Below are positions 46,201-49,200 of a stretch of DNA of 64,000 bases, piece after piece. Source of the stretch: Vermamoeba vermiformis (Eukaryota). A model generated the notes under the pieces. The model did no database searches. It was not told the DNA's origin and worked only from the letters and a program-made list of their open reading frames with translations. The stretch is taken from contig JBEWZL010000236.1 in assembly GCA_045837725.1 (NCBI GenBank), positions 124,001-188,000 on the forward strand. The letters run 5' to 3'. Each line of letters starts with the position of its first letter. The first letter of the stretch is position 1. Position numbers and translations under genes: made by a program.

Positions 46201-49200
46201 GTGGTGGCGGGGGAAGATAGCTATCTCCTGCAGACATGGCGAAGCCTTGCGATTGCTCCATGTAAGGCATGCTGTTGGAGAAGGTCATAGATTGTGCCTG
46301 TGCTTGCATGGTAGGGAAGGGGTTAGGGGGGGTGCACCTGAACTTGACCCAAAAAGAGAAATTGACGGCGCTATTCCATCAGACACGTTTTTGAGTCCAC
46401 CAAACATCGCCCCTTTTGATGACTGCGGAACTTTGGGTGCTGGTTTGGACTCACCTACTGGTTCGTTTTCTTCAAACGGATTTCTGTTGTAGTTATTAGC
46501 ATTTTACGTCCAGAGCGGGGCATTACTCACTTCAAAGTCAAAATTCCGCGCTTCGATTGAGCTTCGTCTCCAATGTAAGAATCTTTTTGACCCATGCCAA
46601 TCATCACACCAGTGTGACGTGGGCGACCAACAAGGGACGGGAACGCAGCACGAGGTGCGTCGTCGCCCACAAAGCCTGCCTTAATTTGATGCGAACCTAC
46701 CGCACGTTAGAACGCTTAAACAATAGTTGTGCCTTATTTGGTGATACATACCCATATCAATGATCACTTGGCTGATGTCACCCATTTCACCAGTGGCGCT
46801 GTGAGAATGAAGACCCGATGCGGCACGAGCCTTCTCTGCCTGTTCTTGAATCTTTTTCAATGCATCTTCTTCCCTTTCCTCACGCTTAGAACGGGCATAT
46901 TCTTGCTGTCTGCACAACACCATCATGAGCAAGAGCTACACAAGCGTGTCAATACTTGATACTTACCGGCTTATCTCGCGCTCAATCTCCTCTTCACGTC
47001 TTCGACGCATTTCTTCAACACGACTTTGCTCTTCCTCGGCTTTACGACGTTCCATCTCTTCGCGCATTTTTTGTTCGGCAAGAATTCGAGCGTTTTCTCT
47101 TTCAATTTCCTCCTGGCGTCTTCTTCGCTCAGCTTCTTCTTGTGCTTTTTGAATCAATCGCATCTGTTCTTCTTTGGCGCGATCAATTTCAGCGTAATAG
47201 GCCGCCCATTCAGCAGCAGCCTCCGCAATGTCTTCCGCTTGTCCGTATTCAAGGCAATGCACTACTACACCTGTTTTGGTAGTATTGCCATTGATTTCGT
47301 CGTTCCACCAAGCCACACGTCGCTTCCACATAGATAAAACTGACACCACGCGGGTCTCAGTTTGGTCTTTCTTTTGTGCGTCGCGACGAGCTCTTAAAGC
47401 CCACCATTGACGGTGAATCTCGGGCAATGAACGTGGTGGCTCCACGTCATGCTTATCGTAAGCATCTAAACTCTCCAACACCACGAGTGATGTGTGTGGA
47501 GTTGTCAAGCCAAAAGCTTTGCCCAAGGCCACAACTCTGCTTTCTGCGTTTGGGGCATCGGGCCAAGCTCGCAGCTCGGCAAGAGCGCGCAAAGCCCAAC
47601 CTCTTGGAGCCAGTTGAGCAGCTCGAGGAGCAACTGACACACCATCTAAGCTAAGAGGCACGGTGACACGAACTTCGTTACCAACACCAGTACCAAAGCG
47701 GAGTGTAATGGTGCCACTAGTCCACTTGGCTTTAGTTGCTTTGGAAAACGAGATTTTGCCGGCCACCTTGAAGTCAGTTCCAGACACTGGTGTGGGCGCA
47801 GAAGGGAAGACTTCCGTGATCAGTGTCTTATCAAACTCGGCTCCGAGATATCTGAAGACTGGCTTGCCTAACGACTGCACAATCGTGCTGAACACGGTCG
47901 ATGAAGTGATTTTGAATGATTCACCACCACTCATACGCGCCAAGATCTTCAGCGAATTGTTGTCCGCTTGGTCAGAAGAGCTGAAGATGTAAATTGGTGC
48001 ACCAATAGTGTCAGGGTAACCCTTCTCGCTCAAGTTGTTGAAGCCATCGGTAAACAGCAGGTAGAAATTGTACGAAGTTGAGCCAGAGACACTGCTAACA
48101 CCTCCAACTGGCAATTCTTTAAAGTTAGTACCACCGTCATATGAGAGCGTTCTCAAGTGGCTGATTAATTGATCGACGGAGCTGAAAGACTTCTTTTCGT
48201 CTTCCACATTACTTGAGTCACGGAACGGTAACAAATCGAATGTGCAACCAGGGAACTTCACGTGATATTATTAGGACTGCTATTCACTTCTAAACATGGA
48301 ACTCACCTTGCGGCCAACTTCAGTCAAAGTCTTGTACTCCAACTCGACGTTAGGATTGTTGTGACGCGACTTTGAGGCATCCCAAACAACACCAATGCGC
48401 TTGACATTTACTTGAGTGTCATCGTTGGGCTTGGTGACCTCGTGAGAAGTGACAAAGTAAATCATATCTTCTTCCTCGGGCTTCTCAATGATAACTTTTT
48501 GTCTAATTGCAGTGAATATTAGCGTTTGCATTACTAAAGAATAACCCTGATTTTGCTTACTCAAAATTCGGCACAGTGATATGAACACCCTGTTTGATGG
48601 GTTGGTTCTTTCCCTCAAAATATCGGCCATATCGTTGCTTGGTTGAAGCTGCTTTGACCACCGCGTTTGATTTGATGGTGTTCGCATCGACCATCTTGTT
48701 CATTTCAACCGGTTGAGGAGTGAAATCTGAAGTAAGCACAGGAACACCAGAATCGGACACATCGAATTGGGTCTGATAACAAGCTATTAGTCATGCGGCA
48801 TGTGACTTGATTGCCACGTACCTTCAATGTGAACTTGGGGACAGGGGCGGGGAAGTCCAACGGCAGTTTGTACTTAGCAGTGGAGGATCGTCCACGATTT
48901 ACTTCTATTTCTTCAATGTATGATACCCTGATCGTTCGAGTACCCTTCTTGGGTAGTGGCGTAATGCGCGATCTTCGTCACACAAGTTAGTTATACTGCT
49001 TTACACGCGCCTTAAATTACTTACCTAAAGACATTTCCGACGACTTGTTCAGCAATGGATGCAGAAGGCTTCTCAACCTTTCTAGCTTCAGCCTCAAATA
49101 CGATTCGAGCCTTCTCTTTCTATCAGCGACAGACAGTTAGTGCCAAGATCAAAGACAAACCAGTCGATCGCCTTACCTCCACGACAACACCGTCCACCAA

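Follow-up and report, generated by a model that had tools for sequence, protein, structure and literature searches.

Actin is among the most constrained proteins and, to my knowledge, it normally occurs as all or nothing. Why does a gene for a quite different protein carry only the beginning of it? In the 64-kb window (the whole stretch of DNA that was analysed), the minus strand from 46785 to 46468 codes for actin residues 1 to about 72, interrupted by two GT..AG introns (Table 1). A first-pass annotation made from the sequence had proposed that this segment is spliced in frame into a non-actin protein, and the proposal was borne out by the sequence, by Pfam and PDB matches, by a splice model with one frame, and by transcript contigs. 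Both introns, 55 and 47 nt in length, proved to be canonical as it had described. The segment is an actin module, consisting of the first three strands of subdomain 1 and all of subdomain 2, the DNase-I loop included.

How far does the actin-derived part extend? When the sequence and its translation were re-read, the first 11 residues were found at 46785-46753, the exon 46696-46531 was translated as G..SHQIK...GILTLK, and NPFEE was found at 46482-46468. The spliced piece was compared by BLAST with 120 actin-containing proteins; the alignments begin at fragment position 3 in 108 of the 120 cases and reach position 71 in 119. Since they extend through N-P-F-E, the actin-derived part ends at about residue 72. 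The rest of actin is absent from the window: with the 375-residue actin P0108 as a query, only this one place was found (E 1.2e-26), and the remaining three HSPs had E values of at least 0.31. The earlier statement that no actin sequence follows the piece was thus confirmed for the window. The GC3 values of the actin piece (0.45) and the host gene (0.47) are uninformative without the parent gene.

Table 1. Coordinates of the actin-derived segment and of other features of its host gene in the window
Feature	Position	Strand	Remark
Whole host gene	43230..49582	-	Splice model, about 1776 codons
Host part of exon 46752-46909	46786..46909	-	End of Glu/Arg/Lys-rich helical stretch, then short linker
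Actin-derived codons 1-12	46752..46785	-	Retained ATG to first base of the Gly13-equivalent codon; 3' end of exon 46752-46909
Intron, 55 nt, GT..AG	46697..46751	-	Phase 1, within the Gly13-equivalent codon
Main actin exon	46531..46696	-	Actin G13-K68: phosphate-1 loop, strands 2-3, all of subdomain 2 with the D-loop
Intron, 47 nt, GT..AG	46484..46530	-	Phase 2, within the K68 codon
Start of next exon	46468..46483	-	N-P-F-E-E still alignable to actin 69-72
Frame break 1	46326..46332	-	Seven C in a row; reading frame of the window lost here
Pro-rich stretch	46054-46216	-	Aligned region of P0001 and P0002
WH2-like motif	45776-45820	-	Aligns with the WH2 stretch of P0001 and P0002
Amphipathic stretch and acidic run ending in F	45620-45691	-	Aligns with the acidic-W stretch of P0001 and P0002
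Frame break 2	45056..45096	-	41 nt in the window, missing from relatives' transcripts (X1 contig arithmetic, X2 loose ends)
Ubiquitin-like domain	44789..45016	-	Pfam ubiquitin E 5.7e-29; end LRLRGN, no di-glycine
Last exon: helical part and DUF2135 beta-sandwich	43233..43846	-	Pfam DUF2135 E 4.6e-7, 30.3 bits (cut-off 22)

What kind of gene is the host? It is a single long gene of an amoeba-like protist, and its product is a VIT-vWA-...-TPR-DUF2135 protein with no signal. In the splice model, a single open frame runs from the ATG at 49582 via ten exons into the actin piece, and the order of the domains is VIT, vWA with a MIDAS, ER/K helix, actin piece, Pro-rich, WH2-like, C/A-like, ubiquitin-like, TPR-like, and DUF2135. 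The claim that the piece is in frame with the upstream VIT, vWA, and helix exons therefore holds on the upstream side; past the piece, the assembled window goes out of frame. The first exons align to residues 6-152 of the homologue P0001 with 37-55% identity, and P0001 matches Pfam VIT (E 1.1e-20); the two ORFs of the window's VIT part that were scanned (48708-48977 and 48283-48699) gave no Pfam match by themselves. Pfam VWA likewise gave no match in the window's ORF, and the MIDAS residues (WDASKSR, DGGT, and TDG) are present in nearly invariant columns of the family alignment. The Glu/Arg/Lys-rich helical stretch before the piece also spans about 46969-47190 in the preceding exon. The C-terminal 204 residues were modelled by AlphaFold2 with a pLDDT of 86.2, and a Foldseek search of this model against the PDB gave nothing at E <= 0.001, only generic beta-sandwiches. 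A weak Synaptobrevin match (E 0.04) was also seen in the centre of the window's protein.

The RNA-seq junction check that the first-pass annotation had suggested showed that the exon is transcribed and spliced. Contigs from the runs X1, X2, and X3 (three studies) carry the joint 46483>46531, one of the 15 joints listed, as well as the joint 46909>46967, and they cover the main actin exon; these contigs differ by 2-3% from the window, that is, they come from relatives. Removal of the intron 46697-46751, whose joint is absent among the 15 listed, was deduced from the length of the X2 contig, as its 837 nt equal 426+158+166+87 nt only with the 55-nt intron removed. The joint 46483>46531 was also found in four raw X21 reads, where the short side of only 24 letters makes it weak. 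The exon may at times be skipped, since eight further joints lie outside those listed. Overlapping spliced contigs tile the host gene from about 43222 to 49640. Thus, it is very probable that the piece is real and expressed. A separate gene starting from the retained ATG was also considered; it is ruled out by the X2 contig, which spans the vWA exon through the piece, and contradicted by homologues having VIT and DUF2135 in one chain. Chimeric assembly of the transcripts with actin mRNA is ruled out because the genomic window has the exon between host exons and introns.

How much of actin is retained in the piece? In Pfam, the main exon scores 41.7 bits with Actin PF00022 (cut-off 27, E 7.5e-11) over profile positions 11-61 of 410, and thus falls short of a complete actin fold, which has four subdomains and about 375 residues. 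In the PDB, the exon finds 124 distinct sequences with E <= 0.001, and all 60 listed are actins (best E 4.5e-28). Over residues 13-68, 48 of 56 residues are identical to 4efh_A and 3a5l_C; over K18-K68, counting in the PDB alignments gave 46 of 51, the same number as had been given before. The phosphate-1 loop, whose residues have a nucleotide-binding role in actin, is not intact in the piece: G15 is replaced by H (H in 0 of 119 aligned actins), N12 by M (1 of 119), and M16 by Q (1 of 119). With residues 73-375 missing and these three residues changed, ATP would be neither bound nor hydrolysed in the manner of actin. Judging from its sequence, the piece cannot be an actin ATPase, as the first-pass annotation had already argued for the full enzyme. 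The exon alone was predicted by AlphaFold2 to have no secondary structure and no fold (mean pLDDT 56.9, pTM 0.12).

The differences from actin (about 16 of the 72 positions of the whole piece) are not evenly spread. Compared with P0108, 45 of the 50 residues of the core A19-K68 are identical, and all five core changes are A/V, I/L, or V/I exchanges with BLOSUM62 >= 0, for which the simulated chance is 0.025. The changes are concentrated outside the core, with 9 of 15 positions changed before K18 versus 5 of 50 in the core (Fisher p 1.9e-4). G42-V43, M44, M47, K50, and Y53, which I take to be functionally notable residues of the D-loop region of actin, are all present. The piece had been said to appear conserved, and this impression is upheld by the core identity, by the conservative nature of its changes, and by a second protein keeping nearly the same actin span (see below). 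An orthologue of the fusion was not found among the 120 matches listed of 7333 (actin exon as a query; 7415 candidates of 105-2000 aa); the 120 are ordinary or tandem actins with identity of at most 86%.

Is the fusion unique to this gene? An actin piece is also present in P0325, a family member of 1118 aa with 31% identity to the window's vWA part. Its residues 721-788 correspond to actin 2-69 (Pfam Actin E 7.4e-10; PDB actins E about 1e-20), located in the same place in the protein, after a Lys/Glu-rich helix, and ending at the K68 equivalent. The phosphate loop is degraded there too, and positions 42-43 are S-I, with M44, M47, K50, and Y53 retained. The P0325 core is identical to actin at 35 of 50 positions and to the window's core at 34 of 50; since the latter identity is no higher than the former, it gives no support for a common origin of the two pieces. 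When the flanking domains were placed in a tree of 29 rows with the centre left out, the window's protein and P0325 did not come out as sisters. Thus, either both have kept the piece of an old ancestor, or it was acquired on two occasions with identical limits. The actin piece is absent from the closest relatives of the window's protein (P0001, P0002, and P0250). A metagenome scan with the vWA exon gave 108 pattern matches and one relative (L001, 87% identity), whose contig stops before the actin exon.

Other amoebozoan members of the family have different pieces at the same place: R-SNARE plus Rab-like, eIF5A N-domain, Snf7 plus PH, and proline-rich/WH2-like modules. P0305 and P0312 have an R-SNARE motif and a Rab-like domain that matches Rab4B 49-178, with no P-loop in front; P0355 has two eIF5A N-domains with the loop SKTGKHG retained; and the centre of P0396 consists of Snf7 and PH. 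An organism named Pelomyxa schiedti in the source has two paralogues with different centres. These pieces and the second actin-bearing member are what is new here. The family search gave 1280 representatives at E <= 0.001. The ESM Atlas clusters with VIT and DUF2135 are 89-100% bacterial, and a search of the Atlas with P0325 found bacterial VIT/DUF2135 clusters only. Bacterial members have a centre with a median length of 148.5 residues (116 measured) versus 280-1110 in the eukaryote-type members. By eye, the bacterial P0003 and P0004 have a signal-like N-terminal stretch, which is absent from the eukaryotic proteins. NCBIfam gave sub-threshold VIT-type matches only, PADLOC gave no family for the five members submitted, and no paper on DUF2135 was found in a literature search.

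Does the neighbourhood of the piece indicate a partner? A module of Pro-rich, WH2-like, and acidic parts begins about 85 residues after the actin piece; it is common to the window's protein, P0001 and P0002 (alignment), and P0250. The first-pass annotation had noticed neither this module nor the ubiquitin-like domain, nor the frame breaks downstream. Pfam WH2 matches are below the threshold of 23.1 bits in P0001 (17.0 bits, E 0.0046), P0002 (18.8, E 0.0013), and P0250 (17.1, E 0.0044); in the window itself, Pfam finds no WH2, and the motif aligns by eye. The aromatic residue of the acidic run is W in these three proteins and F in the window. A complex of the 56-residue exon with a 375-residue actin was predicted with a score of 0.41 versus 0.02 for the best of three controls, lending weak support; contacts are the same across runs (100%), the partner has a pLDDT of 62 or higher, and no interface was given. 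Of 78 solved complexes, 51 pass the mark applied, as do 2 of 108 mismatched pairs; scores of 0.60 or less comprise only five of those solved complexes and all four mismatches that passed. As there are solved actin-actin contacts, the pass may reflect memory.

The best overall explanation, which I hold tentatively, is a selected mimic of an actin surface displayed in the variable centre of a scaffold. That the piece is under selection as a mimic is rather likely. Selection would maintain it as an imitation of the subdomain-2 face of actin (pointed end, D-loop), held out from the variable centre by the long Glu/Arg/Lys-rich helix, and whatever grips that face of actin would grip the scaffold instead. 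The piece may thereby mimic the longitudinal contact of the filament toward the barbed-face cleft. As it precedes a Pro-rich, WH2-like, amphipathic, and acidic stretch of the type handling actin monomers and Arp2/3, the likeliest partner would be the cleft on the barbed face of an actin monomer, the end of a filament, or Arp2/Arp3, although this is a doubtful proposal. P0325 has no Pro-rich/WH2 module beside its actin piece, and therefore a role in actin assembly cannot be the general reason for retention. The quite different pieces at the same place in other members also fit a general bait or handle better than specific docking to actin.

Could the gene simply be broken? The as-assembled ORF with the actin piece ends at the stop codon 46285-46287 after 902 codons, 65 codons past K68, and thus the piece may adjoin the C-terminus of a 902-aa product in this strain, or the gene may be damaged. 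A truncated product or a decaying locus would fit this stop, the 41-nt difference at the second frame break, and the gene model of P0249, a 92%-identical relative (423 aa), which spans one exon only. However, the downstream frames are open over 355 and about 500 codons, and the first break amounts to a single base in a homopolymer of 7, where assemblies often err; all three relatives' contigs covering the homopolymer differ there by +1 or -2 bases and keep the frame. I consider a broken gene improbable. Equally improbable is a tolerated passenger, namely a 5′ fragment of an actin gene that landed in a fast-evolving disordered centre, kept its frame and splice sites by chance, and is too young to have decayed; the ubiquitin-like insert would be explained likewise. 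Such a passenger suits a long, low-complexity, and very variable centre, the abundance of actin and ubiquitin genes as fragment sources, and the closest relatives lacking the piece. It is hard to reconcile with a divergence that left only five changes, all conservative, within the 50-residue core, with P0325, which is far more divergent and yet has the same span, recognisable and in frame, at the same place, and with splicing of the piece into mRNA in three related organisms.

Another alternative is that the piece is an integrated decoy, standing in for the part of actin attacked by foreign enzymes so that the scaffold reports or traps the attacker; by extension, the variable centre of the family would be a set of baits. 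Actin, ubiquitin, Rab, SNARE, ESCRT-III, and eIF5A-type host proteins are classical targets of bacterial effectors, and the long-centre eukaryote-type members (the window's protein, P0325, P0305, P0312, P0355, and P0396) carry partial or non-functional copies of such conserved host proteins, the window's centre holding the ubiquitin-like domain as well as actin 1 to about 72. The differing centres of the Pelomyxa paralogues and the eukaryotic N-termini without the signal-like stretch point in the same direction. On the other hand, the G42-V43 site is not retained in P0325, PADLOC and the literature search gave nothing for such a role, and the WH2/acidic module, the SNARE motif, or Snf7 may just as well be functional parts directing the scaffold to machines of the cell. 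The decoy is thus somewhat unlikely for the actin piece. It is unlikely, though worth stating, that the amoebozoan VIT-vWA-TPR-DUF2135 proteins as a whole are a cytosolic guard or trap family, representing integrated-decoy immunity on a non-NLR scaffold with actin 1-72 as one bait. No likelier is the corresponding list of baits: the D-loop region of actin, ubiquitin, the Rab-like domain, the R-SNARE motif, ESCRT-III Snf7, and the hypusine loop of eIF5A.

Whichever holds, the piece provides a naturally occurring minimal construct for studying subdomain 2 and the D-loop in isolation, and the family's centre proves to be a place where fragments of core cell-biology proteins gather. Should they be baits, effector-triggered immunity in amoebae would be opened to direct test; should they be targeting handles, borrowing a fragment of a cellular machine would be a general way to aim a scaffold at it. 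No description of a transcribed module of only the first 70 residues of actin in two distant family members was found in the literature searched. Compared with actin itself (PF00022), the piece is 86% identical between residues 13 and 68 and keeps the D-loop residues together with the equivalents of K61, R62, and I64, but comprises about 72 of 375 residues, with an altered phosphate-1 loop, no nucleotide cleft, and no predicted fold alone.

In the POTE-actin chimeric genes of primates, a whole actin retrocopy was added at the C-terminus. Here too, actin coding sequence was captured in frame by an unrelated gene and is expressed, but it is the N-terminal fifth only, internal, interrupted by two introns, and recurring in a distant family member. 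Plant NLR immune receptors have integrated decoy domains copying host target proteins; the likeness lies in copies of host proteins in a larger scaffold and in pieces differing between paralogues, whereas the scaffold here is VIT-vWA-TPR-DUF2135, with no NLR architecture and no known immune role. WASP-family proteins have a similar succession of parts: the Pro-rich run is followed by a motif of the type LL..I..G..LK, then by an amphipathic stretch, and last by an acidic run containing an aromatic residue. In contrast to these, the window's module, including its acidic run, is internal and does not form a WASP-type C-terminal central/acidic region, and the protein has none of the N-terminal domains of the WH1/GBD/SHD type. 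Some homologues of WASP and WHAMM are reported to have F replacing W (Kollmar et al. 2012, PMC3298513); the terms VIT, VWA, and von Willebrand do not occur in that paper. Finally, the bacterial VIT-vWA-TPR-DUF2135 proteins have the same flanking domains in the same order, but their centre is short and free of eukaryotic protein pieces, and P0003 and P0004 start with the signal-like stretch.

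In Vermamoeba vermiformis, a signal-less VIT-vWA-TPR-DUF2135 protein carries in its variable centre, after an ER/K helix, an expressed, non-ATPase module made of actin residues 1-72. The main actin exon matches Pfam Actin (E 7.5e-11; 41.7 bits against a cut-off of 27; profile positions 11-61 of 410). A PDB search at E <= 0.001 matched it to 124 distinct sequences (best E 4.5e-28), and all 60 of them that were shown are actins. The first-pass annotation had counted by eye 46 of 51 residues like actin over K18-K68. The same count was obtained from the alignments with 4efh_A and 3a5l_C, in which identity over actin 13-68 is 48/56. 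When the spliced piece was compared with 120 actin-containing proteins listed from a homologue search, N-P-F-E was covered by the alignment in 119 of the 120, with P and E matching. Since the alignments extend past K68 through N-P-F-E, the actin-derived part covers approximately residues 1-72. The statement that no further actin sequence follows was upheld by a search of the 64-kb window with a full 375-residue actin (P0108), which gave a single significant HSP (E 1.2e-26), three others at E >= 0.31, and no other actin part.

Features of the host gene and of its closest homologues
Feature	Position	Strand	Details
Actin start codons	46785-46753	minus	encode 11 actin-derived residues; then 55-nt intron
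Intron, 55 nt	46751-46697	minus	GT..AG; splits actin start from main exon
Main actin exon	46696-46531	minus	G-S-H-Q-I-K ... G-I-L-T-L-K
Second intron, 47 nt	46530-46484	minus	GT..AG
Next exon opening	46482-46468	minus	N-P-F-E-E
First frame break	46326-46332	minus	run of 7 C
Pro-rich/WH2-like/amphipathic/acidic stretch	45620-46216	minus	acidic run with F; resembles WASP-type VCA module
Second frame break	45056-45096	minus	41 nt missing from X1 and X2 transcripts
Ubiquitin-like domain	44789-45016	minus	Pfam ubiquitin E 5.7e-29; poly-Gly run before; end LRLRGN, no di-glycine
Corresponding VCA-like stretch	P0001 ~1090-1210, P0002 ~930-1030, P0250 ~890-1080		acidic run with W

Judged from its sequence, the piece cannot be an actin, because 300 residues are missing and the phosphate-1 loop is altered, in line with the earlier view that it cannot fold as a full actin ATPase. 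The near-invariant loop positions carry N12>M (1/119), G15>H (0/119), and M16>Q (1/119), with counts among the aligned actins in parentheses. Other near-invariant positions are also changed: Y69>N (2/120), I71>F (0/119), A22>V (1/120), and V30>A (0/120). AlphaFold2, given the 56-residue exon and an alignment of actin N-termini, predicted no secondary structure (mean pLDDT 56.9, pTM 0.12), a weak argument that would agree with a piece not folding alone.

The host model has 1776 residues, with X placed at both frame breaks. It begins with VIT, a vWA domain in which the MIDAS residues (D.S.S / T / D) are present, a conserved region, and about 100 residues of ER/K-rich helix. The actin piece comes next; a linker separates it from a proline-rich run, after which come a WH2-like motif, an amphipathic stretch, and an acidic run with F at its end. 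The C-terminal part consists of a poly-Gly run, the ubiquitin-like domain, a helical TPR-like part, and DUF2135 (Pfam E 4.6e-7). The closest homologues in protein collections, P0001, P0002, and P0250 (vWA part 37-38% identical), have all these parts but neither an actin piece nor a ubiquitin-like domain. In Pfam, their WH2 matches are below threshold (E 0.0046, 0.0013, and 0.0044, respectively). A term search of Kollmar et al. 2012 (PMC3298513) turned up no VIT or vWA among the WASP-family architectures, and the paper reports that F replaces W in some WASP and WHAMM homologues. Within the VCA-like stretch of the window protein, positions 45863-45943 (minus strand) have a weak Synaptobrevin match (E 0.04) and resemble half an R-SNARE motif. 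At the matching place, a full motif (E ~1e-11) is present in the Archamoebae homologues P0305 and P0312, and a Pro-rich run similar to the window's lies before it (BLASTP E 9e-4 in one comparison).

Transcript evidence came from contigs of X1, X2, and X3, public sequencing runs from three studies of organisms 2-3% different from the window; the runs are not labelled as RNA. Their contigs lack introns, so they derive from spliced RNA, and CT..AC ends (plus strand) were seen at 10 of the 15 joints printed. The first-pass annotation had proposed RNA junctions as a check. X1, X2, and X3 all have two joints, 46483>46531, by which the 47-nt intron is removed, and 46909>46967, by which the intron preceding the exon with the actin start is removed. 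Of the 23 joints, 15 were printed, and these do not include the one for the 55-nt intron. An 837-nt X2 contig places 426 nt on 46967-47392 and 87 nt beyond 46483; 426+158+166+87 equals 837 only without 46697-46751, and thus the 55-nt intron has been removed in this contig. In X21, a further run whose reads are mostly 90-95% like the window, 46483>46531 occurs in four raw reads with a short side of only 24 letters, rated unreliable. The splice model, built from the contig joints and homology to P0001, is a single open frame from ATG 49582 through the VIT exons, the vWA exon, and the Glu/Arg/Lys-rich helix into the actin piece (residues 771-842). The piece is thus spliced in frame with the upstream exons, as had been claimed. 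The contigs of X1-X3 overlap and tile the gene onward to the DUF2135 exon.

As assembled, the window frame meets a stop at 46285-46287, 65 codons past K68, because of the run of 7 C. All three contigs of relatives that cover this run (two X1, one X3) have +1 or -2 bases there and keep the frame. Farther downstream, the reading frames stay open for 355 and about 500 codons. The first break is more likely an assembly error, and the second a strain or splice difference, than gene decay.

The only close-relative gene model found in the protein collection, P0249 (423 residues), is 92% identical to window 47170-48267. It covers one exon only and stops precisely where that exon does; thus automatic annotation appears to split the host gene and to miss the actin exon. 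Over the ubiquitin-like exon (44826-44998), X21 raw reads show a joint going back 173 nt (99 reads) and many loose ends, best explained by tandem polyubiquitin genes of that organism rather than by the host gene. Just upstream of the gene start, window 49699-49900 belongs to a highly expressed neighbour, with a contig depth of 91-140 against ~5-10 over the VIT gene (10-20x higher) in X1-X3, and it is found in X21 raw reads too. Elsewhere in the window, 54518-57299 (plus) holds an F-box ORF and then a TerD-domain ORF, and 14134-24529 (minus) a series of long ORFs with UQ_con, SPRY, ZZ, and F5/8 type C domains. An intron-less malic enzyme lies at 3987-5474 (minus); one relative is 96% identical, and the best named ones, from Acrasis, dictyostelids, and Balamuthia, reach only 56-57%.

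Is the piece a passenger that the host merely tolerates? An exhaustive representative search with the vWA part gave 1280 matches at E <= 0.001. Among the best 150 of the 1280, which I examined for actin fragments fused to VIT/DUF2135 as had been proposed, one other protein, P0325 (1118 residues, vWA part 31% identical), has an actin piece. BLASTP of the spliced piece against these 150 hit P0325 at 727-787 (E 9e-24, 59% identity), the next best match having E 0.36. P0325 matches Pfam Actin (E 7.4e-10, residues 722-787, profile 2-62), and actins 2-69 (E ~1e-20) are its sole PDB matches among those shown. As in the window protein, its piece comes after a long Lys/Glu-rich helix and ends at the K68 equivalent, after which a Gly/Ser linker leads directly to the TPR/DUF2135 part, with no Pro-rich/WH2 module and no ubiquitin-like domain. 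The phosphate loop is more degraded than in the window's piece. In the core (A19-K68), the piece of P0325 shares 35/50 residues with actin and 34/50 with that of the window. It retains M44, M47, K50, Y53, K61, R62, and I64 but not G42-V43.

The piece had been said to look conserved, and three lines agree, none of them being dN/dS. Changes from the majority actin residue number 9/15 at positions 3-17, 5/50 in the core, and 2/4 after K68 (9/15 vs 5/50, Fisher p = 1.9e-4). The core changes comprise A>V, V>A, I>L, and two V>I; all five had BLOSUM62 >= 0 in 2.5% of trials with simulated random non-synonymous single-base changes, a post hoc test with the transition share assumed to be one half. The actin piece of P0325 is the strongest line. 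For a tree of the flanking domains, the centre was excised and a quick method was applied to 21 bacterial-type rows, picked from the best 150 and a further homologue search, and 8 eukaryote-type rows (29 in all); long branches and heterogeneous composition make the tree only indicative. The 8 rows form one group (SH-aLRT 86) in which P0325 branches first, and the window protein is sister to P0001/P0250/P0002 (support 95). Since P0325 and the window protein are not sisters, the piece would either be old, with three losses or more, or have been acquired twice, each time at the same place and with the same limits; on one or two origins the short piece alone carries no signal. Both readings argue against accident, and together with the conservation they make the tolerated passenger less likely.

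The distance between the conserved N- and C-terminal parts has a median of 148.5 residues in 116 members. In the eukaryote-type members the centre is 280-1110 residues long, with recognisable modules in every one scanned. It is Pro-rich, WH2-like, and acidic in P0001, P0002, and P0250. P0305 and P0312 combine the Synaptobrevin-type R-SNARE motif with a Rab-like domain matching Rab4B 49-178, which starts at the switch I region and has a P-loop-like segment placed after it. P0355/P0399 have two eIF5A N-domains (E ~1e-20) with the hypusine-loop motif kept, and P0396 has Snf7 (E 1.2e-21) and PH (E 2.7e-15). The centre of P0325 is the actin piece, and that of the window protein is the actin piece with the ubiquitin-like and Pro-rich/WH2-like parts. 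Of these members besides the window protein, all but P0325 carry source names, which are Mastigella eilhardi, Pelomyxa schiedti, and Pyxidicula operculata (all Amoebozoa), and Pelomyxa schiedti, so named, has a pair of paralogues whose centres differ. In this family the centre is a cassette.

I propose that the piece may be a look-alike of actin's subdomain-2 face and would recruit whatever binds this face. In the window protein, the adjacent Pro-rich/WH2-like/acidic stretch and the retained longitudinal-contact residues would make the barbed-face cleft of actin or Arp2/3 the preferred partner. A complex prediction of the exon with a 375-residue actin supports this weakly, with a score of 0.41 (best of 3 controls, 0.02), 100% contact agreement between runs, partner pLDDT of at least 62, and no interface reported. 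The score mark was reached by 51/78 solved complexes and 2/108 mismatched pairs; with a score of 0.60 or less, however, it was reached by just 5 of the 78 and by each of the 4 passing mismatches. As structures of actin-actin contacts exist, the prediction may have passed by reproducing known ones. Two more general readings are close rivals: a decoy for foreign enzymes, or a targeting handle, a borrowed fragment of the machine to which it is directed. Both stay close because P0325 does without a WH2 module and the centres of other members carry unrelated pieces.

No paper mentioning DUF2135 was found, and searches at the level of titles and abstracts gave none on a comparable incorporation of an actin fragment into another protein or on integrated decoys in amoebae. 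The family-wide pattern of centre modules deserves a proper survey. The piece lacks what defines an actin, and the host fails one defining test for a WASP-family factor; the case is filed as a domain piece captured into a scaffold, with an unusually interesting donor. The nearest known things are chimeras with a whole actin, for example POTE-actin, whereas the window's piece is actin 1-~72; the integrated decoys carried by plant NLRs; and the WASP-type VCA modules.
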